Positions 4,425 to 34,106 of a stretch of DNA of 64,000 nt are shown here, one piece after another; position 1 is the stretch's first letter; each line of letters opens with the position of its first letter. The stretch comes from Patescibacteria group bacterium (lineage in GTDB: Bacteria; Patescibacteriota; Saccharimonadia; Saccharimonadales; 2-12-FULL-41-12): positions 571,004-635,003 of the forward strand of contig JBBTSC010000001.1 of the NCBI GenBank assembly GCA_038064875.1. Direction: 5' to 3'. A program made the translations under genes and the position numbers. The notes under the pieces are model-generated. The model was not told the DNA's origin, did not search any database, and worked only from the letters and a program-made list of their open reading frames with translations.

Positions 4425-4943
4425 TCACAGCTCATCCGCTATAGCTTCTGAGCGAATTTGACTGGACGATATATTTTTATTTAGCTCAATGATTTGATAT
4501 TTAAAATCTGCAAATCTATATAAATCACTAAATATTTGATCAATTTCTTTTTCAAAATGGGTTCTAGTGGCGACTAAAAGCTCTACCTTTCTAGCAAGCT
4601 CTTCTAGCTTCTCCCATTGATGTATCGTCCGCAGAACATCGTCACCAATAAGCAGAGAGAGTTTGTCGCCCGGAAATAATTTATCGAGTTCTGATAGCGT
4701 ATGTTCAACACTAAAGATTTTTTGATCTAATGCGATTAGCCCTAATTTTTCTTTCCCTGATATCACCTGTTCTATATCTTTTTTTCTTTCACTTAGATTC
4801 GAGATTTTTGGTTTTTTCCTGGGCGCTTGCTCTGGCATGAAATAAACCGTATCAATTCCAAAGTCTAATGCTTTTAGTGCAAATGCCAGATGCCCCTCGT
4901 GGATTGGGTCAAAAGATCCTGGGAAAATTCCAACTTTTCTCAT
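4425..4943 (-). CDS. nadD: nicotinate-nucleotide adenylyltransferase
   Basis: GIFPGSFDPIHEGHL (HxGH cytidylyltransferase motif) and a C-terminal ISSSQIR motif. The start overlaps the upstream gene's stop (4940-4943). Confidence 0.8.
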   Translation of the reverse strand: MRKVGIFPGSFDPIHEGHLAFALKALDFGIDTVYFMPEQAPRKKPKISNLSERKKDIEQVISGKEKLGLIALDQKIFSVEHTLSELDKLFPGDKLSLLIGDDVLRTIHQWEKLEELARKVELLVATRTHFEKEIDQIFSDLYRFADFKYQIIELNKNISSSQIRSEAIADEL

Positions 4944-6469
4944 GTAACCTTGACTGACTCAGCAACAAGTTTATCTGCCTTCGGAGAATCTTTTTTGGGC
5001 TGAAAATATAAGATGTCAGCAGACTGGTCTTTCTGACCTTCTTTCTTCTTTCTGGAACCACCATTTCCTTTGTAAATTGCATTTTCACTAAATACCTTTG
5101 CTCTGCAATCCCAGCAGGAAAGACCATTGGCACATGGATCGTCAAATACAACTGCGGTACAGTGTGGGCAATTCATTCTTTTCTTTCTTCTAGCTCCTCT
5201 GCCAAATACTTCCTGTGGAGTTTGGTCTTCCTGGGATCCTGTAAGCTCCTTGAGCATTTCTGCAAAATCTATCATCCTGCCACAAGAGCTATAGGTTCGC
5301 CCTTCTTTTGCACCACCTAAGGCAAAGAGCGCCATCACATTGGCCAAGTTTTCCTGTACAGCCATTTGCGCAAATTCAGACATGTCTTGTTGTACTTCTT
5401 GTACTGAGTGGCCTTCTAGCGAACTTCTGAACATTTCTATTGAAGAATAGATTACCAGTTGGTGTAGGAGTTTTGCGTCACTGTCAGTGAATCCCGCCTT
5501 GTTACTTGCTCGCATCAAATCACTTCTAGTTTCTGAATTAAAATACTGCGAATTTGCTAAGAATGCATCGACAATTTCTTTCATTTCTGGCGTTTTCTCA
5601 CCGATTGCCAAAGAGTCGACTATCGGAAGATACATCTCTTCAAAGACTCTATCGATTGCTTCTTGATTTGCCTCTATTGTGTCCACTGTATCAATATTCT
5701 CACTTACCACTCTTCCTTCATATTCACGCCTAATTTCCAAAGCGAATTCTTTTGCCTCTTCTTCTGACATTTCTCCGGTAATCGCGTACTGTAGCCAGTT
5801 ATCTGTCGTTTCGTCTTCTGGTATTTCTACTCCGTGTTTTGCGAAAAGGTTTCTCCACCTAGTCTTATCACTCATATCAACAGAAAGAGACCCAGTCACT
5901 AATTCTCCTTCTGAACTGTAGTGATAAAGCTGTATATACGCAGTTTTCTTGCCTGGTATGTATCCTATGTTCTTCCAGAACTCTTCACCGTCACGCTCGA
6001 TCGCTTCTTCTGGCAGGAGACTAACCACAATTCTGGTGTTGTAGTCAGTTTTTCCAGCAAGCATGAGCTCAACTTGCTCTGCATTTTCAAGATCATTGCC
6101 GTCTCTTACCATTTGGTTGACCACTCTTTGATCAAAACGAGAAGCTTGCTTAGAGGACTCGAGGCCATTTTCCAGCAATTCTGTAACGGTGCTTTGCAGG
6201 TCCGCAGACATAACTTTCCCGTCTATAATTTTTCTGGTGTCGAATTTTGTAACCTGTAAAACCCCGCCGTAACTTTCATCACTACTGAGTCCTTCAAAAA
6301 CAGCACTATTAAATTCATCACGCACCTGCGTTTCATGAGCTTGAAGAACCTCAACATCAACAACAGTCTGGGTAGTTATTGCCCCTAGCCTACGTAGTGC
6401 AGAAAGAGACAAGCCATATGTCTCTGGCTGCGGAATGTTCATATTTGGTGTTTTTTGTATTGCTTCCAT
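4940..6469 (-). CDS. hypothetical cytosolic protein with C-terminal Cys-rich zinc ribbon
   Basis: A long ORF of 509 aa with an AAGGA Shine-Dalgarno upstream. It is acidic and helical, with a C-terminal NCPHCTAVVFDDPCANGLSCWDCRAKVF and a Lys-rich tail. I recognise no family. Confidence 0.6.
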   Translation of the reverse strand: MEAIQKTPNMNIPQPETYGLSLSALRRLGAITTQTVVDVEVLQAHETQVRDEFNSAVFEGLSSDESYGGVLQVTKFDTRKIIDGKVMSADLQSTVTELLENGLESSKQASRFDQRVVNQMVRDGNDLENAEQVELMLAGKTDYNTRIVVSLLPEEAIERDGEEFWKNIGYIPGKKTAYIQLYHYSSEGELVTGSLSVDMSDKTRWRNLFAKHGVEIPEDETTDNWLQYAITGEMSEEEAKEFALEIRREYEGRVVSENIDTVDTIEANQEAIDRVFEEMYLPIVDSLAIGEKTPEMKEIVDAFLANSQYFNSETRSDLMRASNKAGFTDSDAKLLHQLVIYSSIEMFRSSLEGHSVQEVQQDMSEFAQMAVQENLANVMALFALGGAKEGRTYSSCGRMIDFAEMLKELTGSQEDQTPQEVFGRGARRKKRMNCPHCTAVVFDDPCANGLSCWDCRAKVFSENAIYKGNGGSRKKKEGQKDQSADILYFQPKKDSPKADKLVAESVKVT

Positions 6470-6611
6470 GATTCCTTTTTTCGAGCACGAGACGGATCAC
6501 AGGGACTGCTCTTGCTCGAGAGACTTAAAATTAAGACAGTTGTATCGGACTATAACCGTTGCGGCACAATGAGGGAATTTCACCCTACTTCCAACTTCAA
6601 TTTATTAAGGT
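6470..6611 (-). promoter_or_regulatory. structured 5' leader with cobalamin-riboswitch-like core (candidate)
   Basis: Minus-strand RNA AGUU-GGAAGUAGGGUGAAAUUCCCUCAUUGUGCCGCAACGGUUAUAGUCCGAUAC-AACU lies at about 6596-6538. An imperfect 10-bp hairpin (6481-6523) follows, abutting the SD. Confidence 0.4.
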
Positions 6612-12073: not shown

Positions 12074-13897
12074 ATGTGTGGAATTGTTGGATTTGTCGGT
12101 GAAACAGATGCTCAAGAGGCAGTCTTGGCTGGACTCAAAACACTAGAATACCGAGGGTATGATTCAGCCGGAATAGCCACACTTGGGGCAAAAAAGATTG
12201 AAGTAGTCAAACAGCTAGGCGAAGTAGATAACATCAGAAAGTCTGAAAATTTTGAATCAAGTAATAAGGCAAAAAATGTCATTGGTCACACGCGCTGGGC
12301 AACTCATGGAAAGCCATCTGTATCAAACGCTCACCCGCATTTCAATAAGGACCAGACTATCTGCGTTGTTCACAATGGGATAATCGAAAATTATCAGACT
12401 ATAAAAGAAATGCTCCAAGCCCAAGGATATGAATTCATCTCTGAGACCGATACTGAAGTTATCCCCCACCTTATTGATTACAATATGCGCGTGGCCAAAG
12501 ATTTTCTCAGAGCGTTTGAACAGACTCTAAAGCAACTCAACGGCGCTTACGCTATTGCCGCCACTTCTGTGGGCGAACCCGATAAGATTTTTGTTGCCAA
12601 GCTATCAAGTCCTCTGGTTATTGGTTCTTCCGAGGGCTTCCATGCAGTTGCCTCCGATAAATCTGCCATCGTCAATCATGTTAAGGAAATAGCATACCTG
12701 GAAGATTACGATTTTGGCTATATTTCAAGTAAATCAATTGAAATAAAAAATCGTTTTAGTGACCACAGCAAGGTTGAAAAAGAATCTATTGATGAAGAAT
12801 TTGTTGATTCTGATCTTGGTGAGTATGCGCACTATTTGGAAAAGGAAATTTTTGAAGCGCCAGAGACACTTAAATTAGCATCCGCTGGTCGAGTTAGCCC
12901 CAATGGACAAGTGAAACTCGGTGGACTCGACAGCGTTCAGTCACAACTGGAACACATTGAGCGAATAGTTATAATTGCCTGCGGGACATCATATTTTGCA
13001 GGTCTCATTGGTGAATATTTGATTGAAGAAATTGCTGGCATACCAGTTGAAGTACAGCTCTCGAGCGAATTTAAGTACCGACAGGAGCCGTTCTCTAGAA
13101 GTACTGCTGTAATCGCCATATCTCAATCTGGTGAGACAGCAGACACCATAGCAGCACTTAAGAAAATGGATAACTTGGGGATTTTGAAACTCGGTATCGT
13201 TAATGCGCCAGGTTCAACTATCTCACGCATAACAGACGCAGGCGTGTATTGTCACGCTGGACCAGAATTATCCGTTGCCTCCACTAAAGCTTTTATTGCT
13301 CAAGTTACCGTGCTATCAGAGATTGCTCTTTATCTGAACAAAACCGATTCTGATCTTGCTAAATCTCTCTGCAAAGAAATTCTTGCCTTGCCTGATAAAT
13401 TAACAAACGTTTTGGCGCAAGCCGACAAGATCAAAAGTGTCGCCAAAAAATATGCTAAAAATCGAGATTTCCTCTATATTGGCAGGGGCTACTGTTTCCC
13501 AGCAGCGCTCGAAGGGGCTCTTAAACTAAAAGAGCTTTCATATATCCATGCAGAGGGCTATGCATCTGGTGAAATGAAGCACGGCCCATTGGCCATGATT
13601 GACGAGGATTTCCCTACCCTAGCTATCGCAACAAAATCAGATCTCCTTCACAAGACTATTTCTAATATTCAAGAGATCAAGGCGAGAAATGGCAAAGTCA
13701 TCGGCATAGTGACAGCAGGCGAGAAAGAAGCCAGCGAGCATTGCGATGACTTCATAGAAATACCTGAGACTATGGAACAGACTACTCCTATCCTTGTGGC
13801 TATTGTTGAACATCTCTTCGCCTACTACGTAGCTCTGGAAAACGGCAAGAACGTCGACAGGCCCCGTAACCTAGCAAAATCGGTCACGGTCGAGTAA
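12074..13897 (+). CDS. glmS: glutamine--fructose-6-phosphate aminotransferase
   Basis: MCGIVGFVG Ntn amidotransferase start, two SIS domains and a C-terminal NLAKSVTVE. Confidence 0.95.
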   Translation: MCGIVGFVGETDAQEAVLAGLKTLEYRGYDSAGIATLGAKKIEVVKQLGEVDNIRKSENFESSNKAKNVIGHTRWATHGKPSVSNAHPHFNKDQTICVVHNGIIENYQTIKEMLQAQGYEFISETDTEVIPHLIDYNMRVAKDFLRAFEQTLKQLNGAYAIAATSVGEPDKIFVAKLSSPLVIGSSEGFHAVASDKSAIVNHVKEIAYLEDYDFGYISSKSIEIKNRFSDHSKVEKESIDEEFVDSDLGEYAHYLEKEIFEAPETLKLASAGRVSPNGQVKLGGLDSVQSQLEHIERIVIIACGTSYFAGLIGEYLIEEIAGIPVEVQLSSEFKYRQEPFSRSTAVIAISQSGETADTIAALKKMDNLGILKLGIVNAPGSTISRITDAGVYCHAGPELSVASTKAFIAQVTVLSEIALYLNKTDSDLAKSLCKEILALPDKLTNVLAQADKIKSVAKKYAKNRDFLYIGRGYCFPAALEGALKLKELSYIHAEGYASGEMKHGPLAMIDEDFPTLAIATKSDLLHKTISNIQEIKARNGKVIGIVTAGEKEASEHCDDFIEIPETMEQTTPILVAIVEHLFAYYVALENGKNVDRPRNLAKSVTVE

Positions 13898-13906
13898 AAT
13901 AAGACC

Positions 13907-14803
13907 ATGCAACCAACCATAAAACCTGTACGCAAAGCTGTTATAGCAGCAGCTGGACTCGGTACAAGATTTTTACCCCAGACTAAATCTTTTCCGAAAG
14001 AAATGCTACCAATTGTCGACAAACCTGTTATCCAATACATCGTAGAGGAACTGGTTGGAGCTGGTATTGAAGACATTGTGCTTGTTACTGGATACCACAA
14101 GAGAGCTATCGAAGACCATTTTGATAAACCAAGTGCAGACTTGGTAGACAAACTCACCGAATCAGGAAAGACCAAAGAGTTAGAACTAGTAAACAGTGTT
14201 AGTAATTTAGCAAATTTTATATACATCCGTCAGAAAGGCCATCATGGCAACGGTACGCCTGTACTTAACGCTGAACATATTATTGGTAATGAGCCATTTA
14301 TTTACACCTTTGCCGATGATTTCTTTGTCGCAAGCCCATCTAGATTCAAGCAAATGGTAGATTTGTACAACCAGACCGGCGCGTCTATTGTTTCTTGTAT
14401 CAAAGCCGACAAGCCCGAAGATTATGATCGCTATGGCTATGTTAGTGGCGAGCAAACTGGTGAAGGTATCTATGATCTTAAAAGTATCGTTGAAAAACCT
14501 GGCCAAGCTAATGCCCCGTCAGATATCGCCAGCGTCAGTGGTTATCTGTTTGTCCCTGAGATATTTAGTTACCTCAACGAAGACTATGCTAATTTTGATC
14601 CAACAAAGGGTGAATTTACAACTCATGATTCAACCCAGCGAATGATCAACGACGGGCTACCATTTAAAGCCCTCGAGATCAAAAACGGAAAATACTACGA
14701 CAGCGGAAACAAACTAGAATATATAAAAACAGTCGTCGATTTTGCCCTTAAAAACCCAGAAATATCTGAAGATCTGAAGATCTATCTGAAATCACTATTG
14801 TAG
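13907..14803 (+). CDS. galU: UTP--glucose-1-phosphate uridylyltransferase
   Basis: AVIAAAGLGTRFLPQTKSFPKEMLPIVDKPVIQYIVEE is the canonical GalU N-terminus. Confidence 0.85.
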   Translation: MQPTIKPVRKAVIAAAGLGTRFLPQTKSFPKEMLPIVDKPVIQYIVEELVGAGIEDIVLVTGYHKRAIEDHFDKPSADLVDKLTESGKTKELELVNSVSNLANFIYIRQKGHHGNGTPVLNAEHIIGNEPFIYTFADDFFVASPSRFKQMVDLYNQTGASIVSCIKADKPEDYDRYGYVSGEQTGEGIYDLKSIVEKPGQANAPSDIASVSGYLFVPEIFSYLNEDYANFDPTKGEFTTHDSTQRMINDGLPFKALEIKNGKYYDSGNKLEYIKTVVDFALKNPEISEDLKIYLKSLL

Positions 14804-16582
14804 ATCAGTGATTTGATCGTCCGGTAGGCGAAATAGAGCTTCGTCTAGGCGCTTTTGGTCTAGGTAGTGCGCAATAAATCCAACTGTACGAGCATAAACA
14901 AATATCGCATTACAAAATTCGGTATCAACCAAAGCCTTAATTTGTTCCAGACTATAGCCTTCTTCCTCAGCTAGCATGTCAAGCGTCAAAGCTCCAATAA
15001 GACCATCTACATTGAGGATTAGCTGAGCTTTTTTATTAGAAGTTATTTTCTCTACCTCAAGAGCAAAATTTGTATAATCTCCAGTCTTAAATTCAGCTAA
15101 CAATTTGGTTACTCTAGGGTCTGGGCTATCCACTCGGTATTTCTTATGGCCGATTCCAGCTATATATTCTTTTTTGGAAGCAAAACGTTCTACAAAATCT
15201 TGCGGTGATTCTCCGCTCGCTACTGCCTGGAGCCAATTCTGCGCTGCCTGATTAATAGCACCACCAAAACGTGGGCCAATGGTCAAAAGCCCTGTAGCAA
15301 GTCCGGCAGTCAAGTCTCTGCCTGCTCTAGCAGTAACCATGGTGTTGACCGCACCAGATACCTGAGGACCGTGATCTACCAACAATCTTAAGCTCAGATC
15401 AAAAAATCGTGAAAACTCAGGTGATTTAGGCTCATGACCCAAGAACATACTCAAAGCCACTTGGCTCAGTGATTTGTTGCCCACAAATTCAATTAACTCT
15501 TTGCCTAGAATCCTTACATCTCCACCTTTGTCAGAAGACACATTGTTAACAAACATTGCGTGCTTTCTGTTTTCTAGATCAGATGCTTGATCATTCATAG
15601 TATTATTATCGTCCATTTGCCCCCCTTCGGCAACCGTCTCTTTAATTAATTGTTCGAAATTGCTGAAACTATCTGCAACTTTTGCTCCAACGCTTGCGAG
15701 AACTTGCCTTTTTGCTGAAGCTGTCTCTGACGGATCGTGAGCCATCGCCTTAGCATGGCCAAATTGTGGAGCATCTTCAAAACTCTCTGCTACTTTACCA
15801 GCAATATAACAAATAAGTGGCTTCGTGTTTGCTGAGTTTTTAAGTAGCTCCGCTATTTCATATTCGTCTCTTCCCCCCACCTCTCCGAAAAAGACTATCG
15901 CTTTTGTTTGTTGATCATTGAGCGCCAGGCTAACAAGATCAACTGGCTTTAATATCGGATACCGTTCTCCGCCTATAGCACCAGCGAAGGAAACACTCCC
16001 GCCAAATCCTGCAATCATGTTAATCAACTCATTGGTAACTCCTCCAGATGTTGATATAACTGCAGTAGACCCGGCTTTAGTAATCCTGGACTTAGTTATT
16101 TGGGAAGCAAGCGTTCCACCTATCGCACCGATTTTACAAACTCCCGATATCAAGAAGCCAACACTAGCTGGGCCCAGAATAAAAATGTTTTTTTGCTTTG
16201 CCAGCTCTCGTAGTTTTAGAGCATGTCTTTCTGTTACTCCCTCAGCAAAAACCATGCCACCAACAACGTTCGGCAATAATCCTATTGCCTCCTCACAAGC
16301 ACTAATTGCTCTTCGCCCAGATTGAGCTACAGCAAAAAGATCAATTTCCTCAAGAACATCTGCTGGAACTTCCTTAAGAGAAATGTATCCTGGTAGAACT
16401 ATTTCTTTTTTACCCCAGAAATAACGAAGACTTTTTCTCTGCACACCAATTATGGCCCTAATACTCGGCTGGTTTTTGCCCGATAGATAGTCAAAATCTA
16501 GAGTCGACTGAATAATACCAGGGTGATTGCCAAAGACAACGGCTCCCAGATTTTGTTTTCCCTTTAGGCCATCGATATTCAT
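14795..16582 (-). CDS. aclA: ATP-citrate lyase alpha subunit (CoA-ligase domain + citryl-CoA lyase/citrate-synthase-like domain)
   Basis: The sequence looks colinear with the C-terminal two thirds of ACLY. Matching segments are LDFDYLSGK..RYFWGKKEIVLPGY, the phospho-His loop PQFGHAKAMAHDPSETASAKRQ, DHGPQVSGAVNTMVTARAGRDL, GIGHKKYRVDSPDPRV, LILNVDGLIGAL and GFIAHYLDQKRL. Confidence 0.85.
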   Translation of the reverse strand: MNIDGLKGKQNLGAVVFGNHPGIIQSTLDFDYLSGKNQPSIRAIIGVQRKSLRYFWGKKEIVLPGYISLKEVPADVLEEIDLFAVAQSGRRAISACEEAIGLLPNVVGGMVFAEGVTERHALKLRELAKQKNIFILGPASVGFLISGVCKIGAIGGTLASQITKSRITKAGSTAVISTSGGVTNELINMIAGFGGSVSFAGAIGGERYPILKPVDLVSLALNDQQTKAIVFFGEVGGRDEYEIAELLKNSANTKPLICYIAGKVAESFEDAPQFGHAKAMAHDPSETASAKRQVLASVGAKVADSFSNFEQLIKETVAEGGQMDDNNTMNDQASDLENRKHAMFVNNVSSDKGGDVRILGKELIEFVGNKSLSQVALSMFLGHEPKSPEFSRFFDLSLRLLVDHGPQVSGAVNTMVTARAGRDLTAGLATGLLTIGPRFGGAINQAAQNWLQAVASGESPQDFVERFASKKEYIAGIGHKKYRVDSPDPRVTKLLAEFKTGDYTNFALEVEKITSNKKAQLILNVDGLIGALTLDMLAEEEGYSLEQIKALVDTEFCNAIFVYARTVGFIAHYLDQKRLDEALFRLPDDQITDLQ

Positions 16583-17745
16583 GAGTTTAGCTCCTCAATA
16601 GCAGTTTTGACAGTAGCCCCAATAGAAAGTTCTGTCCCAGAAACTTTGCTGGTCACGCCTTTACTGTCCAGAAAATCCTTCATTAACTTTAGCCCCTGCT
16701 CTTGATTTGGGCCACCTCGTCTGACTACCACTTTGATACCCTGATTTTTTAGCTCATCAATATTCTCATCAAGCGCCCTGATAACACCCTTAAAGGTCTT
16801 AGCAACATCTGTAAAGTTTGCCACACCTCCGGCAATGAGTAGCACTTTTTTCTCTGCCTTTGAGTCAAGCATCAATCTCACTACCTGTTTTGTATAGAGG
16901 TAAGTGTCCTCTTCATTTGGATTACCGCTATATTCGCCGTAATTTCCAATAATATCTTTGTCTGCCAAGCTAGCAATTTCGTCTAATATAACTACACTCG
17001 CGCCGCCGCCCGAAAGCAACAAAAACAGATTTCCGTCTGGGTTTAGCACCTTAAGAACCAGTGAAGCTGGAGTGGTTGAAGCTAGTTCCTCAATAGCATG
17101 CTCTGCAGGATGTAGCGTTTTCTTTGGAGCTCTAAAGTCTGCAGACGACCATCCCTGAGCGAAAAATTCTGCCGATGAATCAATCTCTACTGCCGCATCA
17201 AGTGGAGTGATTTTGTCACCCTGAATTACTAAAGGATTGATCTCTAGATAAGTCATTTGATTGGTCTCGAATAAATCTAGTAATTTCCTGATAACGTCTG
17301 GGTTTAGATCTGTCGTATTAGTACTGATATCACTATCAAAGCCAAACAAACAGCTCTGCAGAGTTTCTTTATTATCCTCTATGTTCACCCCGCCTTGAGA
17401 CGAATATTGCAATTCTACGCCAGCATCTGTGAGTTGCATCGCTACAAAATGTTCATCCTTTTGATCATGCTCAAAAAAGGGTTCAACTAGCCCATGACTG
17501 TAGCCTTGCTCAGCAAAATCTTTAAGGTCATCTATCACCTGCGAAGCATTGCGATTGAGTTTGACCAATCCAAACTGATTTCTTTTCTTGACGGCTTGAT
17601 CCACCTTAACAACATAGTTGCCTTCAGTTAGGCCAAGTTGTGAAATATCCTTTGATAAATCAACACTAACCCCAGTATATTCAAAGCCGAATACTTGCGA
17701 CAGTAGATTCTTCGCTCTAAATTCAGAAATTTTTACTCTAGCCAT
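16579..17745 (-). CDS. aclB: ATP-citrate lyase beta subunit (ATP-grasp / citrate-binding)
   Basis: The size (388 aa) and the N-terminus MARVKISEFRAKNLL resemble the ACLY/AclB start. It has an ATP-grasp fold with EINPLV and GGIVNFTDVA-like (GGVANFTDVAKTFKG) motifs. There is a 4-nt overlap with aclA. Confidence 0.75.
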   Translation of the reverse strand: MARVKISEFRAKNLLSQVFGFEYTGVSVDLSKDISQLGLTEGNYVVKVDQAVKKRNQFGLVKLNRNASQVIDDLKDFAEQGYSHGLVEPFFEHDQKDEHFVAMQLTDAGVELQYSSQGGVNIEDNKETLQSCLFGFDSDISTNTTDLNPDVIRKLLDLFETNQMTYLEINPLVIQGDKITPLDAAVEIDSSAEFFAQGWSSADFRAPKKTLHPAEHAIEELASTTPASLVLKVLNPDGNLFLLLSGGGASVVILDEIASLADKDIIGNYGEYSGNPNEEDTYLYTKQVVRLMLDSKAEKKVLLIAGGVANFTDVAKTFKGVIRALDENIDELKNQGIKVVVRRGGPNQEQGLKLMKDFLDSKGVTSKVSGTELSIGATVKTAIEELNS

Positions 17746-17772: not shown

Positions 17773-19110
17773 CTAGCCTCTTATGAGAGCGAGAAGTTCA
17801 TCTCGCTTCTCAGCCATAATCTCAGGAGAACTAGCTTCGACCGTTAGACGAACCAGCGGTTCATTATCCGATGGACGTACGACACAGTGCCAATCAGGAT
17901 ATCTTATGGCTACACCAGAAATATGATTTATCTCCGCATCTGCGTATTTTTCTTCAACCTTTTTCAGCACTGCCTGTGGATCAGCTACTTTTGAGTTGAT
18001 TTCGCCAGAGAGGAAATATTTTGCTTCAAGTTCCTTGATAATTTCTGACAGTGGCTTGCCCAAGCTACTGACGTAAGCTAGCAGTGTTAATCCTGACAAA
18101 ACACCAGAGTCAGCGAACCAGAAATCTTTAAAATAAAAATGTCCGGATACTTCACCACCAAAGACAATCCCTTGTTCCTGCATCTCCTTCTTTATGTAGA
18201 CGTGTCCTGGCTTGAAAACGTGAGGAATCCCCCCGCTAGCCTTAATCATATCTGGTACGGCGTCAGAAGCCCGAACATCATATAATATTTTTTCACCGGG
18301 TTTTCGCTGAAGCTCAGCCACCCCAAGTAGTGCTGTGATCCAATCTCCCGGTATAGAAACACCACGATCATCAACCAAAAGACACCTGTCGCCATCCGGG
18401 TCAAAGATCAGACCCATATCAGCACCAACTTGCTTGACCTTGTCGCGAAGCATAGCTTGGTTCTCAAGCTGAATAATATCATTTCCGTGGTTCGGGAAAT
18501 TACCATCGGGCTCAAAGCATATTTTGATCATTTCGATAGGTAATTTTTCTGCTAATTTCTCCCACACTGGACCCTGCGCCCCGTTACTTGGGTCAACGAC
18601 AACTTTCAGTGGCTTGATCTTAGAAGGTGGAATAAATTCGAGCATGTAATCAACAAATGCTTCTTTGACTGATTCCTCAGTCACTTCACCAACGCGGTCC
18701 GCATCTTCATACGTAGCTTCCGTAACTCGTGGCATGAATTCTTTTGCCATAACAAAATTTGGCAATTTAATAACCATTTTAAAGCCATTGTATTCCGGTG
18801 GATTGTGAGAGGCCGTCACCATGATACCCGGCAACTCTTTTTTACCACATGCAAAATAAAATTCGTCTGTACAGACAATACCAATATCTATGACATCGAC
18901 TCCTGATTTAATAAACCCATTGATGACTGCTTGCTTGAACTCTGGACCACTCAGCCTGACGTCGCGACCAACAACAACTTGGCTAGGATTAACTTCTGCG
19001 ACAAAGGCCCGGGCAACTTGTTCTGCTGCAGCTTCGTCTATCTGCGAGGGCACTACTCCGCGAATGTCATAAGCCTTAAATACAGATGGATCAATATGAA
19101 AGTCTGGCAC
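17773..19110 (-). CDS. phosphomannomutase/phosphoglucomutase
   Basis: Active-site TASHNPPEYNGFK, metal loop FDPDGDR and sugar-binding GEVSGH. Confidence 0.85.
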   Translation of the reverse strand: MPDFHIDPSVFKAYDIRGVVPSQIDEAAAEQVARAFVAEVNPSQVVVGRDVRLSGPEFKQAVINGFIKSGVDVIDIGIVCTDEFYFACGKKELPGIMVTASHNPPEYNGFKMVIKLPNFVMAKEFMPRVTEATYEDADRVGEVTEESVKEAFVDYMLEFIPPSKIKPLKVVVDPSNGAQGPVWEKLAEKLPIEMIKICFEPDGNFPNHGNDIIQLENQAMLRDKVKQVGADMGLIFDPDGDRCLLVDDRGVSIPGDWITALLGVAELQRKPGEKILYDVRASDAVPDMIKASGGIPHVFKPGHVYIKKEMQEQGIVFGGEVSGHFYFKDFWFADSGVLSGLTLLAYVSSLGKPLSEIIKELEAKYFLSGEINSKVADPQAVLKKVEEKYADAEINHISGVAIRYPDWHCVVRPSDNEPLVRLTVEASSPEIMAEKRDELLALIRG

Positions 19111-20150
19111 TACTTGTCTCCTTCTTTTTGAATCTTTTTGGCGATGTCTCCAACTTTTTGGCTCAGATCTTTTCTGGCAATAACTAATCCGTCAGAGGTA
19201 TTGGAGACAACAATATTATCAAGCCCAATCACCGCGATTGGCTTGTCCTCATCATTGCGAATATAGGCATTCTGGACTTCATGTACATGGGCGTTGCCGA
19301 GAACTGCATTTCCTAGTTCGTCCTGATCGCTCACATCATGTAGATCTTTATAACTACCAACATCAACCCAGTCAAAACTTGCAGGAACCATCATAAGATC
19401 TGTCACTTTTTCTATCAACGCGTAGTCGATACTATCGCTTTCGAATCCCAAGTAAGTATCTCTGTACTGATCTGATGACACATCTTTTATTGCATTTAGA
19501 TTTGCGAGCATCTTGGAAAGTTTTGGCGATACGTCGTCTATCTCTCTCTTGAAAGTCTTGTAAGATCCCACAAAATAGCCAGCATTCCACGAATATTTAC
19601 CGCTATTTACGTATTGTTTGGCAGTAGGATAGTCTGGTTTTTCTTTGAAGCCAGCAACCTCGTATCCACCATTTTTAGCTTGCCCCTTTTCAATATAGCC
19701 AAAACCGACCGCTGGATATGTCGGCTCAACGCCGACTAGAACTATTCTGCCTGTTTCTTGAGAAATTTTATCCGCCATTTCAAATGACCGTGCAAAACCA
19801 ATATTGTCTCTGGTTTGATGGTCTGCTGACATGAATATAATTGATTCATCTTCACCATGGACTCGGTGTAGTTGATCAAGCGCCGCAATGATACAGCCTG
19901 CGGTACCTCGCCTAGCAGGCTCAATAATAAAGTTCTCTTTGGGAAGATCTGGCAACTGCTCAATGATTTCATCAGCATGACTAACTTCTGTCAAAATATA
20001 AACCTTATCAGAGAGATTCTTTGCTCGAGTATAGGTATTTTGGACCAAGCTTCGCTCACCAATAAGGTTAATAACTTGTTTGGGCTTTTCGTGCGTAGAT
20101 AATGGCCAAAGTCTTGTACCGGAACCGCCAGCGATAATTACAACTATCAT
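19110..20150 (-). CDS. manC: mannose-1-phosphate guanylyltransferase (nucleotidyltransferase domain only)
   Basis: The N-terminus [16 protein letters not shown] is typical of ManC/CpsB. There is no C-terminal cupin/PMI domain. Confidence 0.8.
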   Translation of the reverse strand: MIVVIIAGGSGTRLWPLSTHEKPKQVINLIGERSLVQNTYTRAKNLSDKVYILTEVSHADEIIEQLPDLPKENFIIEPARRGTAGCIIAALDQLHRVHGEDESIIFMSADHQTRDNIGFARSFEMADKISQETGRIVLVGVEPTYPAVGFGYIEKGQAKNGGYEVAGFKEKPDYPTAKQYVNSGKYSWNAGYFVGSYKTFKREIDDVSPKLSKMLANLNAIKDVSSDQYRDTYLGFESDSIDYALIEKVTDLMMVPASFDWVDVGSYKDLHDVSDQDELGNAVLGNAHVHEVQNAYIRNDEDKPIAVIGLDNIVVSNTSDGLVIARKDLSQKVGDIAKKIQKEGDK

Positions 20151-22585: not shown

Positions 22586-23445
22586 AAGGCATAATACTCG
22601 CAGGCGGATCAGGCACTAGGCTCTACCCTATAACCAAAGGGGTTAGTAAACAGTTAGTTCCGATCTATGACAAGCCAATGATTTATTACCCCTTGAGCAC
22701 GCTACTGCAAGCAGGAATCAAAGATATCTTGATGATAACAACCCCCCACGACAGCCAAAATTTCAAAAATCTTCTTGGTGATGGCTCAGAAATTGGTATC
22801 AACATTCAATATGCCAGCCAACCTTCTCCTGATGGACTGGCTCAGGCGTTCATCATCGGCGAAGAATTTATCGGTGATGATAGCGTTGCCTTAGTGCTCG
22901 GCGATAATATTTTTTATGGTCACAGTTTCCAGGATCAACTCAAAGAATCTGTAAATCCAGACGGCGGTGTTGTCTTTGCTTACCCAGTGTCTGACCCTGA
23001 AAGATACGGTGTTGTCGAATTTGATGAAAATATGAAAGCTCTTTCTGTTGAGGAAAAACCAGAAAATCCCAAATCTAGTTACGCAATCACCGGGCTTTAT
23101 TTTTATGATAACGATGTAGTAGAGATCGCCAAGAACGTCAAGCCGAGCGACAGAGGCGAACTCGAAATAACCTCAGTTAATGACGAATACTTGCAGAGGG
23201 GCAAACTAAAAGTTCAGATTATGGACCGCGGTGATGCATGGCTCGACACAGGTACCTTCGGCTCAATGATGGATGCCGCGCAGTACGTAGAAGTTATCGA
23301 AAAACGAACTGGTCTTAAGATCGGCTGTATCGAAGAAATTGCTTACCAGCAGGGCTTTATCAACAAAGATCAGTTGCTTAAAATAGCTGAGCCACTCAAA
23401 AAATCTGGCTACGGACACTACCTAAAAAAATTGATTGAGAAGTAG
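22582..23445 (+). CDS. rfbA: glucose-1-phosphate thymidylyltransferase
   Basis: [18 protein letters not shown]...[17 protein letters not shown] is the canonical RmlA sequence. It shares an ATGA overlap with rfbD. Confidence 0.95.
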
Positions 23446-23446
23446 C

Positions 23447-26155
23447 ATGCAGAAGGTCTATGTACTTAGATCCACTCTTGTCCTTGCAATAATTACCTTA
23501 TTCCTAGGACTTTATAGCCCGGGTGCAGAAGCGGCTACTTTTACCGTCATAAATACCAACGATTCTGGTGCAGGCTCACTGCGACAAGCGATTATTGACG
23601 CCAATGCAACTGTTGGAACCGATAATATCAATTTCAGCATAGGCTCTGGCGCGCAACAAATTATACCTACCTCTGCCCTCCCTCCGATAACTCGTCCAGT
23701 AGTCATTGACGGAACTACCCAAACAGGTTTTAGTGGGACACCCTTAATAGAACTCAGTGGGAATGGTGCTGGAGCTGGCGCTCGTGGATTTTATGTGAGC
23801 GGGAACGGTGCAGGTAGCACGATAAAAGGTCTTATAATCAACAACTTTAGCTCACAAGGCATCTTTATTGATACAAGCTCAGTTACCATTGTTGGAAATT
23901 ACATTGGCACCAACGCCAGTGGTACTGCCGATGCTGGCAATGGTGGTGATGGAGTAGCTATATTCTCTGGCACATCTCTGGCCGACGCAAATAGTAATAT
24001 TGTCGGTGGCACCTCTGCTAGTGATCGTAATGTCATATCTGGAAATAACGAAAACGGTGTAGGTATAACTGCTCAAGACGGTGGCGATGCTTCAAGCAAC
24101 ACAGTCCATGGAAATTACGTCGGGACTAACGCCAGTGGCACTGGGTCTATCCCAAATACAGGAGATGGCATATTAATTAACCACGCTGGCGGGGCTTCTG
24201 CTACCTCAACGAACAACATAATAGGTGGCACCACCGGCACAACGCCAGATGGTGCCTGTACAGGTGCATGTAATTTAGTCTCTGGGAATACCGCAAATGG
24301 GATTGGTCTTTGGCACACTGGCGTCAGCGGAACAACTGTAGCCGGAAATTTCGTCGGGACTAACGCATTAGGAACTGGAGCAGTGGCAAATGGCAATATC
24401 GGAGTTGAAGTTAACGAGACAGCTAATAACACTGTTGGGGGCACAACACCAAGCGCCCGTAATATCCTCTCTGGCAATGGTGGTTCTGGAGTTTTCCTAA
24501 CAGGAGCTGCCGCTACGGGTAACGTCGTTGGAGGCAACTACGTTGGAACAAATAGCTCTGGAACTAGCGGAGTTGGCAATGTAAAAATGGGTATTGGCAT
24601 TGGAGCATCACCTGGAGCAGTAGGGGCAAACAGCAACACTATCGGTGGCACAACTGGCAACACTCCGGGCGGGGCATGCACCGGAAGTTGTAATCTGATA
24701 TCTGGAAATGGAGAAAACGGTATTTTTATATCTGGTACAGAGAGTTTTGGGAATCAGTTTGTCGGTAATTATATTGGAACAAATGCTAGTGGTACTGGGT
24801 CTATCGGTAACACTCTTGACGGAATTGGGCTTTTGAGTACTCCAAATACTATGATCGGTGGGAGCACAGCAAATGCCCGCAATGTTATTTCTGGAAATGG
24901 CGACAATGGAATTATAATTGTCAGCGGAGCTTCCACTGGTAACAGAATTGAAGGTAACTACATAGGATTGAATACTTCTGGCTCGAGTCTAGGGAACACA
25001 GATAGTGGCGTAGTTGTATCTTCAGCGACTGACACCGCAATACTGAGCAACAATATAGCTTTTAATGGCAAGCTCGGTATTGATCTTGATAACAACGGGA
25101 CTCCCAACCTCAATGATCCAAATGACACAGATAGTGGCGCCAACCGATTACAAAATTTCCCAAATATTTACGCTGTAAAAACTGTTGGATCAACAACTAA
25201 AATTGGCGGACAATTCAACGGGACTCCGAGTACAAATTTTCAGCTAGACTTTTTCTCAAGTGACGGCTGTAATGCTGGCGTTCCAAATAATTACGGCGAG
25301 GGGCAGAATTTTGTAGGTTCAACCTCAATCTCCACTGACATATTTGGCAATACTGCGTTTGGCTATACTGCACCTTCCGCTATCCCTGGAGGCAAATATG
25401 TAACTGCCACAGCTACAAAGAAGATAGGTTCAGCTCCAGCTGAGACCTCAGAATTTTCTCTTTGCATGTTAGTCAACTCTGCCAAACCCGCACTTACGAA
25501 TGGCGCTGGCTGGTTCTTAAAAAACGACCTAACAACTGGTCCCGCTGACAAGCAGTTCGGTTATGGCTTCCCTGCAACTCTGCTGATGTGTGCATGGGAT
25601 CCTAACCAACCAGGAGTTAAATTGCCAGTAGTTTACTCTGGTGGTGGCTGGTATATGAGAGCTAGTTATACCACAGGCACCGCTGATCTGAGTTTTTCAT
25701 ATGGTGGTCCTAGTTTCAAAGCAGTCTGTGGTGACTGGGACGGTGACGGAGTAGATACACCAGGAGTAGTCTCTACAGAAAGCCAATGGTTGCTTCGAAA
25801 TAGTAATAGTGGAGGTTCAGCGGATGCCGGGAATTTCCAATTTGGGCCCTTTTCTGTAACACCTGTAGCGGGTGATTGGGATGGAAATGGAACAGACACA
25901 ATCGGTGCGGTAACTTCTGGTAATCAATGGTACCTACGCAATAGCAATGATTCTGGCGGAGCAGACGGAGGCAGTCCTAGCTATGGTCACCTTCCAGGCT
26001 ATCCAATTGTAGGCGATTGGGATGGCAACGGTAGCGATACTATTGGTTCCGTAAACACTGGTGGAACATGGTCTATACGTAACGCCAACACCAGCGGTGC
26101 GCCAAATGGTGAATTTCAATACGGTTTCCCGGGCGCAATTCCTCTAATCTGGTAG
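23447..26155 (+). CDS. giant secreted right-handed beta-helix protein with C-terminal FG-GAP/VCBS-like GDWDG repeats
   Basis: Signal peptide (MQKVYVLRSTLVLAIITLFLGLYSPGAEAATF) and a CSLREA-like GSLRQAIIDAN motif. There are six GN(Y/F)(I/V)GTNASGTG turns alternating with N(V/L)(I/V)SGNxxNGI turns, followed by WxLRN...GDWDG(D/N)GxDTxG repeats. The ORF track's TTG 23435 overlaps rfbA, so ATG 23447 is preferred. Confidence 0.7.
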   Translation: MQKVYVLRSTLVLAIITLFLGLYSPGAEAATFTVINTNDSGAGSLRQAIIDANATVGTDNINFSIGSGAQQIIPTSALPPITRPVVIDGTTQTGFSGTPLIELSGNGAGAGARGFYVSGNGAGSTIKGLIINNFSSQGIFIDTSSVTIVGNYIGTNASGTADAGNGGDGVAIFSGTSLADANSNIVGGTSASDRNVISGNNENGVGITAQDGGDASSNTVHGNYVGTNASGTGSIPNTGDGILINHAGGASATSTNNIIGGTTGTTPDGACTGACNLVSGNTANGIGLWHTGVSGTTVAGNFVGTNALGTGAVANGNIGVEVNETANNTVGGTTPSARNILSGNGGSGVFLTGAAATGNVVGGNYVGTNSSGTSGVGNVKMGIGIGASPGAVGANSNTIGGTTGNTPGGACTGSCNLISGNGENGIFISGTESFGNQFVGNYIGTNASGTGSIGNTLDGIGLLSTPNTMIGGSTANARNVISGNGDNGIIIVSGASTGNRIEGNYIGLNTSGSSLGNTDSGVVVSSATDTAILSNNIAFNGKLGIDLDNNGTPNLNDPNDTDSGANRLQNFPNIYAVKTVGSTTKIGGQFNGTPSTNFQLDFFSSDGCNAGVPNNYGEGQNFVGSTSISTDIFGNTAFGYTAPSAIPGGKYVTATATKKIGSAPAETSEFSLCMLVNSAKPALTNGAGWFLKNDLTTGPADKQFGYGFPATLLMCAWDPNQPGVKLPVVYSGGGWYMRASYTTGTADLSFSYGGPSFKAVCGDWDGDGVDTPGVVSTESQWLLRNSNSGGSADAGNFQFGPFSVTPVAGDWDGNGTDTIGAVTSGNQWYLRNSNDSGGADGGSPSYGHLPGYPIVGDWDGNGSDTIGSVNTGGTWSIRNANTSGAPNGEFQYGFPGAIPLIW

Positions 26156-28907: not shown

Positions 28908-28908
28908 C

Positions 28909-32247: not shown

Positions 32248-33363
32248 TTACTGCTCTTTGATACCTTTTTTTATAACATCTACGATTAATTCAATATAAT
32301 CAGCGTTCATCTCTTCTATAACAGGTAGAGACAATATACTATTCTCAACCTCTTCCGTATTCTGCAGAGAAAAGGAAGTTATCGATTTTTCAGTTATTAC
32401 TGGAATTTTATGTAGTGTTGGCGAATAATACGCTCTCGCTTGGACTCCAGCGTCGTGAAGCGCATGGAAAATCTTTTCCTTGTTTGGGACAGTCACTGAT
32501 ATAAATGCGCCTGTAGATAAAAGTACATTTTCCTGGAACTGTACGTCTTCTGTAGATAGCAGATCCTGGTATTTATTTATTATGCTTCTTCTAAGTTCAA
32601 GCCTATCAGCATATGATTCTAGTTGTCTGAGACCTATAGCACAACTCAGTTCCTGCAGTTTGGCATTTGTCCCGATCATACCGACTGTGCGATCATCGTT
32701 AAAGCCAAAATTCTGCATTTTCCGAAGTTTATCTATCAACTCTTTGCTTTTACTCACTATTAATCCGCCTTCTCCTATGGCAAAAGGTTTGGTCGCATGA
32801 AATGAAAAGACTTCGCAATCACCACGACCGCCAAGAAATTCACCATCACTATATTTCGAGCCAAATCCAGCTGCTGAGTCTATTATCAGAGGAATTTGTT
32901 TGCTTTGTGCTAGATCTTCCCACTTATCAATAGCTTTGTTGCCCACGCCAAATACATTTGGCAGTATAATTCCGGCGACATCTGTCGACTCCTTGTCAAT
33001 AAACTCTTTTGCTTGAGTGATCGAAGGTTGCCAAGAATCTTTTTCAATATCAATGAACACCGGTACAAGCCCGCTATTTATGACTACTTCTGCAACGGCA
33101 GCAAAGGTAAATGAAGGTATAATTACGTATTTTTTGTCCGGATTAGCCAGAGTTCTTAGAGCAATCTCCAGACCGAGCGTACAGTTCGCAACAGTTGTGC
33201 CATGTAAATCTTTACCGAGAAATTCGGTGGCTTTTATTGATAGTTCTCTCTCGTATGGGCCAAAATTAGTGAACCAGTTTGAGGCAATTATTTTTTTGTA
33301 ATCTTCTGCCATAACCTCAGGAGCCGGAAATACTGGCTTGATAAAAGGTATCTTATATTGCAT
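32248..33363 (-). CDS. DegT/DnrJ/EryC1-family PLP-dependent sugar aminotransferase
   Basis: IPFIKPVFP start, DSAAGFGS, and the PLP lysine context FSFHATKPFAIGEGG. The likely start is ATG 33363, 32 codons inside the track ORF, overlapping the upstream stop by 11 nt. Confidence 0.85.
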   Translation of the reverse strand: MQYKIPFIKPVFPAPEVMAEDYKKIIASNWFTNFGPYERELSIKATEFLGKDLHGTTVANCTLGLEIALRTLANPDKKYVIIPSFTFAAVAEVVINSGLVPVFIDIEKDSWQPSITQAKEFIDKESTDVAGIILPNVFGVGNKAIDKWEDLAQSKQIPLIIDSAAGFGSKYSDGEFLGGRGDCEVFSFHATKPFAIGEGGLIVSKSKELIDKLRKMQNFGFNDDRTVGMIGTNAKLQELSCAIGLRQLESYADRLELRRSIINKYQDLLSTEDVQFQENVLLSTGAFISVTVPNKEKIFHALHDAGVQARAYYSPTLHKIPVITEKSITSFSLQNTEEVENSILSLPVIEEMNADYIELIVDVIKKGIKEQ

Positions 33364-33976
33364 CGAGCCAGCCATCATTTTTAGAGACCATCTTGGCGGG
33401 CACACCCACGTACACAGAGTTTTCTTCCTCAATATCCTCGATGACAACCGCGCCAGCACCTATAACCGCACCGGGAGCGATTTTCACGCCATTTTTTATT
33501 GTTGCACCAATCCCTACAAATACTCCGTTACCGATAGTTGCCTTGCCGCCGATATGAACACCAGGGGCAAGCGTTGCGTAGTCACCAATAATCGTGTCGT
33601 GTCCTACGGTGCAACCGGTGTTGATCAAAACATGCTCGCCAACCTTTATATCAGTCGTGAGCACTGATCCAGACGCTACCAAAGTTCCAACTCCTATTTC
33701 TGTCCGAGATCCAACATCCGCATTTGCAGAAACAAGTTTGGCGTAATTGTTACCTGACCACAGATCAATAAGCTTCTTTTTAAGACGTGGCGCGCCCGCG
33801 GCGGAGAAAATAGGTGTTTGTTCTTGTTCTTCTGTAGGACTTGAGATATCTATAAGATTATCTCCATCTCCAAGATAATCTACTTCCACAGCTCGAAATT
33901 CCACTTTTAAATCAGGGAAAAAAGACTCTGTCTCGTTAGCTTGACCACCGTTTCCTAATAATCCGATACTGTTCAT
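33353..33976 (-). CDS. PglD/NeuD-like sugar N-acetyltransferase (left-handed beta-helix)
   Basis: N-terminal Rossmann-like IGLLGNGGQANE and C-terminal hexapeptide repeats (IGDYATLAPGVHIGGKATIGNGVFVGIGATI). The preferred start is ATG 33976, preceded by TAAAAT and 7 nt. Confidence 0.8.
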   Translation of the reverse strand: MNSIGLLGNGGQANETESFFPDLKVEFRAVEVDYLGDGDNLIDISSPTEEQEQTPIFSAAGAPRLKKKLIDLWSGNNYAKLVSANADVGSRTEIGVGTLVASGSVLTTDIKVGEHVLINTGCTVGHDTIIGDYATLAPGVHIGGKATIGNGVFVGIGATIKNGVKIAPGAVIGAGAVVIEDIEEENSVYVGVPAKMVSKNDGWLDAI

Positions 33977-34106
33977 TGCTAACATTTTACCGCATTTAGG
34001 GCTAATCAAGTAAGTAGTTCCGAAAAGTACCGCCCTAATGTACTTGTCAGATAAGCGCTTTTTGTTTACTAATATTAGTTGAATTTGCCCTCTTGTTGGT
34101 AAAATA

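Follow-up and report, generated by a model that had tools for sequence, protein, structure and literature searches.

ATP-citrate lyases (ACLs) have been described as fused and as two-subunit enzymes. Human ACLY (P53396; 6HXH, 6UUZ, 6POE and others) is a single fused chain of ~1,100 amino acids (aa), and the archaeal ACLY-A/B of M. (Methanothrix) concilii (6HXI / 6ZNW) is a two-subunit form of the ACLY type, with 421 + 631 aa. In the candidate phyla radiation (CPR), Sieber et al. (2019; PMC6851277) described a two-gene ACL from a BD1-5 bacterium, a Gracilibacterium. Here we describe the ACL gene pair carried by a 64,000-nucleotide (nt) stretch of the Patescibacteria contig JBBTSC010000001.1, referred to below as the window. 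The phosphohistidine loop of its large subunit reads GHAKA instead of GHAGA, and this lysine marks a large and apparently undescribed CPR subfamily of ACLY. We consider it probable that the pair is a working heteromeric ACLY-type ACL, belonging to a clade with Lys in the loop (the Lys clade) that was inherited vertically within the CPR, and that it supplies acetyl-CoA for the cell envelope from scavenged citrate.

Several related systems frame this comparison. In human ACLY the catalytic centre comprises G281-283, S308, F347, E599, S663 and G664-665, and the loop bearing His760 flaps from the ATP pocket to that for citrate and back, being ordered only if phosphorylated (PMC11365397; PMC10115795). 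AclB/AclA of Chlorobium limicola (6HXJ) has the same two-subunit architecture and chemistry as the window pair and works in autotrophic CO2 fixation with partners of the reductive tricarboxylic acid (rTCA) cycle. The citryl-CoA synthetase (CCS) and citryl-CoA lyase (CCL) of Hydrogenobacter (6HXQ, 6HXP) and succinyl-CoA synthetase (SCS) have in common with it the ATP-grasp/CoA-ligase core and a swinging phosphohistidine loop. The Gracilibacterium enzyme was presented as 'rarely detected in CPR', GHAGA was cited for its annotation and a role with scavenged citrate was proposed (PMC6851277). A 2025 study of Hainich CPR metagenome-assembled genomes (MAGs) found aclAB enriched in Saccharimonadia, without further analysis (PMC12577380). 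Both the presence of ACL in CPR and the scavenged-citrate reading are therefore already published. The Gracilibacterium ACL reportedly has the canonical GHAGA and is most similar to archaeal proteins, whereas the clade of the window pair carries Lys and extends over hundreds of CPR species.

Identity of the gene pair

The initial annotation, a reading of the DNA alone, had proposed a two-subunit ACL made of a 595-aa and a 388-aa product, and the coordinates, lengths and minus strand of both open reading frames (ORFs) agree with it (Table 1). The stop codon of the small subunit overlaps the start of the large subunit by 4 nt (ATGA), and a GAGGAG Shine-Dalgarno sequence lies 5' of this start. 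When compared with solved structures using HMMER, residues 12-592 of the large subunit aligned with human ACLY 497-1092 (E 7e-104) and residues 39-382 of the small subunit with human ACLY 50-418 (E 8e-60). The large subunit matched M. concilii ACLY-B with an E-value of 5e-103, and the best solved-structure match of the small subunit was M. concilii ACLY-A (6hxi_A, E 1e-62); the domain order is the same and the alignments are near full-length. Both halves of human ACLY are thus colinear with the pair, from which the regulatory linker of the human chain (426-486) is missing, and the two window subunits are shorter than those of M. concilii. The colinearity is far beyond chance.

The domain content is in line with this. 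In the small subunit, Pfam recognised Citrate_synth_N, the ACL-specific ATP-grasp (102.6 bits, cut-off 83), and Citrate_bind (182 bits, cut-off 26.8). In the large subunit, Ligase_CoA, Succ_CoA_lig and Citrate_synt were found, the latter with 79.7 bits over residues 361-585 and profile positions 138-355 of 357, that is its C-terminal two-thirds. Citrate_bind, Ligase_CoA and Citrate_synt had all been named in the initial annotation as domains to look for. The ligase part is therefore fused to the citrate-synthase-homology (CSH; citryl-CoA lyase) module on one 595-aa chain. The sequence motifs cited in favour of an ACL, LDFDY, DHGPQVSGAVNTMVTARAGRDL, GIGHKKYRVDSPDPRV, LILNVDGLIG and GFIAHYLDQKRL, are all present; the pattern given for the His loop has to be corrected, since the actual string, FGHAKAMAHDPSETASAK, reads 'PSETA' and not 'ASETA', and the dotted pattern was two positions short.

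No NCBIfam model reached its cut-off with either protein of the pair, which explains the GenBank name of the large subunit, 'citrate/2-methylcitrate synthase'. Large subunits of this kind are deposited under that name or as 'succinyl-CoA synthetase alpha subunit'. The first name was rejected: the citrate synthase domain is partial and the best NCBIfam citrate synthase score is 54.9 bits for a cut-off of 421, so that we regard the name as a mis-annotation. SCS was also rejected, with NCBIfam scores far under the cut-offs for the alpha (107.5 bits vs 336) and the beta subunit (55.6 bits vs 375.55). The two-enzyme CCS/CCL system was discarded because Ligase_CoA and Citrate_synt share one 595-aa chain; CCL is homologous to the C-terminal module of that chain, which is here fused to a ligase alpha-type subunit. 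Match strengths to these systems are far lower than to ACLY (4e-16 and 2e-10 for the CCS subunits, ~1e-20 for SCS alpha), and the NCBIfam score for CCL, like those for SCS, falls far below its cut-off. Solved citrate synthases, like CCS and SCS, gave poorer matches than even the Chlorobium subunits. Taken together, these comparisons make the assignment of the pair as a heteromeric ACLY-type ATP-citrate lyase (EC 2.3.3.8) well supported at the sequence level. Both genes look intact, with no sign of a decayed enzyme.

The lysine of the phosphohistidine loop

The translation of the loop core confirmed GHAKA, in which Lys278 takes the place of human Gly762, the second Gly of GHAGA. We collected the closest homologs of the large subunit (the best 120 of 2,367 word-index matches at E<=1e-20, 49-100% identity) and found Lys in all 120, with the loop reading GHAKA in 105, GHAKS in 14 and GHSKA in one. 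The departure from GHAGA pointed out in the initial annotation is thus genuine. We also examined the gene loci of the best 80 of 341 species-representative genomes that encode a relative in a scan of one genome per GTDB species. Lys was present in 80/80, encoded by AAA in 52 and by AAG in 28; since both codons are used, the residue is kept at the protein level. Gly occupies this position in 32/33 GHAG-type relatives. When representatives of 50%-identity clusters were searched exhaustively, Lys was met down to ~44% identity and remoter matches carried Gly; among the latter were fused proteins of ~1,000-1,100 aa, which we regard as eukaryote-type, and two-subunit forms, including one with a DPANN archaeon label. 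A cluster similar in length to the M. concilii enzyme (P0136, 619/631 aa) reads GHAGA. The rare forms GHAAA (P0141) and GHAWA (P0165) also occur among ACLY-like representatives, and the second Gly is therefore not strictly required in the family.

A neighbour-joining tree with Kimura-corrected distances grouped the Lys sequences, together with one nested GHAGA sequence (P0123), in 192/200 bootstraps (96%). The tree was rooted on P0192, which we take to be a Chlorobium-type representative from its KFGHAGAKEG loop, the form found in rTCA-type AclA. The nearest outgroups of the Lys clade were GHAGA two-subunit forms, with a Saccharibacteria-labelled protein in one cluster. P0123 (L081, 1663-3477) lies inside the clade and encodes its Gly by GGC; because this codon is two changes away from AAR, we interpret P0123 as a reversion to Gly. 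It keeps the other clade-specific positions described below and therefore offers a natural 'K278G' variant.

We found no account in the literature of the Lys-for-Gly signature, nor of how large the clade is or that it is linked to murB, Tdh-Kbl or Acs (see below); the searchable literature being incomplete, this negative is absence of evidence only. In practice, motif checks that require GHAGA would reject the Lys-clade ACLs, and inferences of the rTCA cycle from ACL in metagenomes would miscount them.

Active-site residues and proposed mechanism

Residue correspondences were taken from the HMMER alignments, in which residues 12-315 of the large subunit align with human ACLY 497-799, and conservation was checked in two alignments (Table 1). 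In the small subunit, K47, K53, R55, E168, N170 and D183 of the ATP-grasp, as well as G246-G248, N268-G274, N310-F311-T312 and R342-R343, are common to fused GHAG-type ACLYs. The mapped catalytic residues of ACLY are conserved, with Lys278 for human Gly762 as the sole active-site departure among them. H900, H975, D1026, R1065, R1085, N346/T348 and R379 also have catalytic roles in human ACLY, which presumably apply here. The counterparts of H760 and of all catalytic-centre residues listed in PMC11365397 and PMC10115795 are invariant or shared-invariant in the window proteins and their clade.

By analogy with the human and M. concilii enzymes, the ATP-grasp domain of the 388-aa subunit would hold Mg-ATP, and His276, on the swinging loop of the 595-aa subunit, would reach the ATP site and become phosphorylated. 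The loop would then return and pass the phosphoryl group to citrate in the citrate-binding domain (N310/T312/R343), giving citryl phosphate, whose attack by CoA would yield citryl-CoA. Cleavage of the latter into acetyl-CoA and oxaloacetate would involve E114 and the CSH module (H404, H479 and D526).

Glu187 and the other clade-specific positions

Comparison of 123 Lys-clade with 33 GHAG-type sequences revealed nine positions of the large subunit that are conserved within each group and different between them (Table 1). The small subunit has five such positions, among which Glu187 shows the clearest change of charge. Of 75 Lys-clade partners, 95% have Glu here; the equivalent residue is Lys in human ACLY, in M. 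concilii ACLY-A and in 10/16 fused forms. The four nearest GHAG-type relatives examined, P0130, P0131, P0132 and P0133, have partners with Arg. Human G762, K220 and R976-V977-K978 thus face Lys278, Glu187 and Lys480-Lys481-Tyr482 in the window proteins. From their distribution, we read Lys278 and Glu187 as clade-defining changes under purifying selection.

As the His760 loop flaps between the ATP and citrate pockets, Lys278 and Glu187 could form a charge-swapped docking contact, a suggestion that we put forward as a lead only. No compensating acidic residue was found near the loop in the large subunit, in which E581, part of the CSH module, is the one position to have become acidic. Strict co-evolution of the two residues was rejected, as the revertant P0123 has Gly and its partner retains Glu187; the two changes are therefore not obligatorily coupled. 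Both rest on a single evolutionary transition. The most likely effect of Lys278 and Glu187, on docking of the phosphohistidine loop or on phosphoryl stabilisation, is likewise speculative. We hold as rather doubtful the further-reaching proposal that, within the superfamily of NDP-forming acyl-CoA synthetases and ACLY, the CPR Lys clade forms a branch with a mechanism of its own, in which the Lys278-Glu187 pair would alter the engagement of the loop with the nucleotide site, and that its enzyme acts as the principal oxygen-insensitive source of acetyl-CoA for the cell wall in hundreds of CPR species. The invariant Lys and the charge reversal in the ATP-grasp subunit make the swinging phosphohistidine loop of the ACLY/SCS superfamily the subject of a natural experiment.

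These same positions raise the question of a new function for the clade, with a changed substrate, phosphoryl donor or regulation, in place of the standard ACL reaction. K278 would act there together with R91, A153, Q161, P213, Y482 and E581 of the large subunit and E187 of the small one. R91 (human S577) and K278 bring positive charge near the CoA/phosphohistidine region, and Y482 and K480 fall in the region of the CSH module; the human equivalent of K480, R976, was mutated to Glu in PMC10115795, the mutant being predicted to destabilise non-productive CoA binding. That nine and five positions separate the two groups, and that no NCBIfam model names the protein, also fit such a change. However, all mappable citrate-binding, ATP-grasp, CoA-ligase and lyase residues are kept, the Citrate_bind score is as high as given above, and the return of P0123 to Gly with the other clade positions unchanged suggests that Lys is not bound to a different chemistry. 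A new function is for these reasons unlikely.

Table 1. Positions in the window of the ATP-citrate lyase genes and their neighbours, and residues of the two subunits with their human ACLY counterparts.
Feature	Window positions	Strand	Human ACLY	Remarks
ACL small subunit (AclB / ACLY-A-like), 388 aa	16579..17745	-		ATP-grasp domain + citrate-binding domain
ACL large subunit (AclA / ACLY-B-like), 595 aa	14795..16582	-		CoA-binding + CoA-ligase domains, phosphohistidine loop
Loop core G275-H276-A277-K278-A279 (large)	15746..15760	-		GHAKA
Lys278 codon (large)	15749..15751	-	G762	clade-specific
Segment DAAVEID (small)	17179..17199	-		translation
Glu187 codon (small)	17185..17187	-	K220	clade-specific; ATP-grasp strand LDAAVEID
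His276 (large)			H760	invariant in alignment
Glu114 (large)			E599	invariant in alignment
His404 (large)			H900	invariant in alignment
His479 (large)			H975	invariant in alignment
Asp526 (large)			D1026	invariant in alignment
Arg565 (large)			R1065	invariant in alignment
Arg585 (large)			R1085	invariant in alignment
Ser179-Gly180-Gly181 (large)			S663-G665	
Gly246-248 (small)			G281-283	
Ser273 (small)			S308	
Asn310-Phe311-Thr312 (small)			N346-F347-T348	
Arg343 (small)			R379	
R91 (large)			S577	clade-specific
F112 (large)			I597	clade-specific
A153 (large)			N638	clade-specific
Q161 (large)			N645	clade-specific
P213 (large)			F697	clade-specific
S387 (large)				clade-specific
Y482 (large)			K978	clade-specific
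E581 (large)			Q1081	clade-specific, CSH module
glmS	12074..13897	+		Pfam GATase_6/7 + SIS
galU	13907..14803	+		Pfam NTP_transferase
Phosphomannomutase/phosphoglucomutase (PMM)	17773..19110	-		Pfam PGM_PMM I-IV
manC	19110..20150	-		Pfam NTP_transferase + ManC_GMP_beta-helix
DegT-family sugar aminotransferase	32248..33459	-		Pfam DegT_DnrJ_EryC1 266 bits
NeuD/PglB/VioB-family hexapeptide sugar N-acetyltransferase (PglD-like)	33353..34009	-		Pfam Hexapep

Host, distribution and inheritance

The host reads as a Saccharibacteria-like Patescibacteria MAG from Hainich groundwater, and the earlier description of a metabolically reduced genome suits this CPR bacterium. The closest homolog of the large subunit, with 79% identity, belongs to Candidatus Saccharibacteria RIFCSPHIGHO2_12_FULL_41_12 (L004), whose flank shares galU, glmS, GT4 and a sugar transferase with the window. 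Among the best 120 of 2,367 matches, all named organisms are Patescibacteria, Saccharibacteria or Levybacteria; the labels of the best 80 of 341 genomes are Saccharibacteria/Saccharimonadia, Levybacteria, Woesebacteria, Magasanikbacteria or apparent placeholder bin names. The small subunit is encoded directly upstream on the same strand in 77/78 loci with room for it. The number of genomes and the conserved gene order thus indicate an established two-gene unit of the CPR and not an isolated acquisition. Many MAGs with a CPR-type ACL and CPR-like neighbours (L005, L009, L012, L013, L015 and others) were deposited as 'uncultured Gammaproteobacteria bacterium', which looks like a placeholder or a wrong taxonomy.

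The initial annotation had implied that the pair might be an oddity or gained by horizontal transfer. A recent acquisition, or a contaminant from binning or assembly of the MAG, might be suspected from the fact that the nearest solved relatives are archaeal and eukaryotic, all the more as a lateral transfer from archaea was inferred for the Gracilibacterium ACL (Sieber et al., PMC6851277). Yet the GC content of the ACL genes (0.42) equals that of the flanking windows, the genes are part of a contiguous, operon-like array of overlapping ORFs, and five contigs, the longest of 765,891 bp, carry an identical large-subunit protein. The flank shared with L004 and the split of the ACL tree into Saccharibacteria-labelled and Levybacteria-labelled loci speak against it as well. 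We therefore judge a recent transfer or a contaminant very improbable and abandon the framing as an oddity, considering that the clade occurs in 341 species-representative genomes. The shared flank, the GC content and the tree split imply that any transfer is older than the diversification of these CPR groups.

Gene context of the related loci

In the initial annotation, the pair was described as embedded in a sugar-nucleotide locus. Each neighbour found in the window recurs in just 4-9 of the 80 loci, any of them being present in ~18/80, and most of these loci belong to the Saccharibacteria-type branch of the ACL tree. Clade-wide conservation of the exact sugar-nucleotide context was rejected on these counts; the embedding is limited to that branch. 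The Levybacteria-type branch shows another association: murB lies 3' of aclB-aclA on the same strand in 36/80 loci. It is the next ORF after aclBA in 21 loci, with gaps of -22 to +106 nt in 19 of them, and the linkage persists despite a variable upstream flank (EF-G, GreA and others). Over the 80 loci, the recurrent company of ACL consists of murB, D-Ala-D-Ala ligase (Ddl), GlmS, rml/GMD genes and sugar acetyltransferases, with Ddl adjoining in 4/80 and a GNAT acetyltransferase in 4/80, both in the Levybacteria-type branch.

Other neighbours in the Levybacteria-type branch form acetyl-CoA. L-threonine dehydrogenase (Tdh) and a Kbl-family glycine C-acetyltransferase, which convert threonine into glycine and acetyl-CoA, adjoin ACL in 6-8/80 loci, an acetate-CoA ligase (Acs) scoring above the equivalog cut-off does so in 3/80, and an OFOR (2-oxoacid:ferredoxin oxidoreductase) is found 1-3 kb away in 2/80. 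The Tdh-Kbl-like pair, whose second member resembles 2-amino-3-ketobutyrate CoA ligase, was seen beside ACL in L028, L035, L038, L040 and L059 (upstream of aclB), in L030, and in L050 and L070. In some Levybacteria-type genomes tdh-kbl-aclB-aclA-murB run on one strand, an arrangement that looks like an 'acetyl-CoA supply' gene cluster.

The GHAG-type relatives have contexts of their own. In the GHAGA-type locus L083 (6040-11755) the pair belongs to a polysaccharide operon on one strand, where it comes directly after a hexapeptide acetyltransferase and a DegT fusion. In L085 (383-6104), of GHAG type, the context is archaeal (PcrB, Rpr2) with an OFOR adjoining, and the small-subunit gene is apparently split or truncated, leaving a 93-aa Citrate_bind fragment. 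In L087 (1-9797), the ACL with large subunit P0132 stands beside aconitase, two genes of the isocitrate dehydrogenase (IDH) family and a homocitrate-synthase-like gene.

This last locus, and the standing of ACL as the classic rTCA marker, bear on whether the window enzyme could cleave citrate within a reductive TCA cycle, the role that ACL has in Chlorobi, Nitrospirae and Campylobacterota. With the aconitase and IDH proteins of L087 as queries, no match was obtained in either the 64-kb window or any of the 80 loci, together 1.53 Mb; judged from these two enzymes, rTCA partners such as accompany the Chlorobium enzyme appear to be absent around the Lys-clade genes. The Chlorobium type is also much remoter in sequence (the large subunit matches 6hxj_B with E 1e-62 and the small one 6hxj_A with 6e-36, vs 1e-103 and 1e-62 for the ACLY type), in agreement with the tree, and genomes of CPR and Saccharibacteria are without a TCA cycle (PMC6031116; PMC12114108). 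An rTCA role is thus hardly credible. Since the enzyme belongs to the ACLY (eukaryote/archaeon-like) and not to the Chlorobium type, the comparison with rTCA bacteria made in the initial annotation has no bearing on it.

Physiological role

The most economical reading of gene context and CPR genomics is that the enzyme would serve as a stand-alone generator of acetyl-CoA for envelope biosynthesis, fed by external citrate. The acetyl-CoA would be used mainly for N-acetylation of the amino sugars of the envelope (peptidoglycan and surface polysaccharide), with oxaloacetate as a by-product of citrate cleavage. The enzyme would operate outside any rTCA cycle, in a lineage generally without pyruvate dehydrogenase (PDH), pyruvate:ferredoxin oxidoreductase (PFOR) or TCA cycle. 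Starr et al. (PMC6031116) report neither PDH nor PFOR, and essentially no TCA genes, in a Saccharibacterium from soil or in six further complete genomes of Saccharibacteria. The neighbours murB, Ddl, Tdh-Kbl and Acs, and the lack of aconitase and IDH nearby, support a supply of acetyl-CoA to the envelope. The initial proposal, acetyl-CoA from scavenged citrate for amino-sugar N-acetylation, hence gains from the context of the 80 loci and from the reported lack of PDH and PFOR; a citrate transporter was seen neither in the window nor in the genes that recur beside the pair.

Besides this missing transporter, several points weigh against our interpretation. The large subunit does not carry the GHAGA signature used as diagnostic in PMC6851277; we treat GHAKA as a variant and not as an exclusion from ACL, because the signature is a feature at the level of a motif and not of a domain. 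The tree was obtained by neighbour joining with a simple distance correction and not by maximum likelihood, and both the activity and the direction of the Lys-clade ACL are predictions from homology. The loci behind the context associations are not independent phylogenetically, small CPR genomes devote much of their gene content to the envelope, and murB itself uses no acetyl-CoA. The lack of TCA enzymes, PDH and PFOR in the host is taken from the literature on its relatives. Finally, the OFOR genes near ACL in two Lys-clade loci mean that ACL is not always the sole possible source of acetyl-CoA.

The direction of the reaction deserves separate consideration. The overall ACL reaction is near equilibrium. 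Running in reverse as an ATP-conserving citrate synthase (acetyl-CoA + oxaloacetate + ADP + phosphate -> citrate + CoA + ATP), the enzyme would allow substrate-level phosphorylation or serve to make citrate. Cleavage of citryl-CoA by ACLY is a reversible step (PMC10115795), acetyl-CoA-making enzymes adjoin in 11/80 loci, with OFOR in 2 more, and could feed ACL, and the balance of phosphoryl transfer could be shifted by the Lys and Glu changes at the loop concerned. Against this direction, neither the window nor the 80 loci offer aconitase or IDH as a nearby user of citrate, a source of oxaloacetate was not identified, and the neighbourhood is dominated by genes of envelope biosynthesis, for which acetyl-CoA is in the end required. 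Moreover, the usual ATP gain of CPR goes from acetyl-phosphate or acetyl-CoA through acetate kinase (PMC6031116). Operation in reverse is in our opinion improbable.

Citrate cleavage for envelope acetyl-CoA would have consequences beyond this locus. Saccharibacteria reportedly have no route from pyruvate to acetyl-CoA (PMC6031116), yet they make peptidoglycan and N-acetylated surface sugars; a conserved ACL tied to envelope and acetyl-CoA-forming genes would explain, for a large subset of CPR, how this is possible. Were ACL the principal source of acetyl-CoA, hundreds of CPR species would depend on citrate derived from the host or the community, a nutritional requirement to be considered in culture, and citrate suggests itself as a supplement for the cultivation of CPR.

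Neighbourhood of the pair in the window

The location of the pair between galU and PMM/manC, with GlmS nearby, is as first annotated. manC, pmm, aclB and aclA are co-directional with junctions of -1, +27 and -4 nt, the ACL genes being distal, and are probably one transcription unit. This is judged from the spacing only, because a scan of 13.5-20.6 kb for promoters and terminators gave counts at chance level (13 vs 14.4 and 4 vs 5.8 expected by shuffle). On one side, glmS and galU converge on the ACL array, galU overlapping the 3' end of the large-subunit gene by 9 nt; at the other side, rmlBCDA diverge from it. The best NCBIfam match of galU is TIGR01099 (256 bits, below the cut-off of 326.8), and the best PMM/PGM model gives PMM 405 bits, under the cut-off of 618.

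The pair lies inside an envelope-polysaccharide locus of ~9-48 kb, which holds a priming sugar transferase, several glycosyltransferases, the DegT aminotransferase, the NeuD/PglB/VioB-family N-acetyltransferase, an ABC-2 exporter, a GDP-mannose dehydratase and a Wzy-like protein. The PglD-like acetyltransferase, which had been assigned to the same locus as ACL, does belong to this large polysaccharide locus, at a distance of ~16 kb from the pair; it scored 150.7 bits with NCBIfam TIGR03570, slightly below the cut-off of 160.8. From their families, we regard it and the DegT aminotransferase as putative consumers of acetyl-CoA in the ACL locus. Between rmlA and an Amidase_2 protein, two convergent ORFs of ~900 aa (23435-26155, plus strand; 26160-28937, minus strand) each have an N-terminal hydrophobic segment and are without Pfam or NCBIfam match; they are probably secreted or surface proteins.

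Some features of the window are unrelated to ACL. The genes yidC (53334-54230, minus), dnaA (55025-56380, plus), dnaN (56605-57696, plus) and recF (57726-58742, plus) place the window at the chromosomal replication-origin region. An AdoCbl-II (B12) riboswitch was detected at 6531-6608 on the minus strand (43.2 bits, gathering score 36.5). Directly 3' of it, and presumably under its control, is an ORF of 509 aa (4940-6469, minus), soluble and with no Pfam or NCBIfam match or predicted transmembrane segment, followed by a NadD-like nicotinate-nucleotide adenylyltransferase (4425-4943, minus). Finally, the ORF at 1093-1866 (plus) encodes a TauD/clavaminate-synthase-like Fe(II)/2-oxoglutarate dioxygenase, which matches Pfam TauD at E 6.5e-11 and weakly resembles arginine and enduracididine hydroxylases; such an oxygen-dependent enzyme fits the oxic adaptation reported for Saccharimonadia (PMC12577380).

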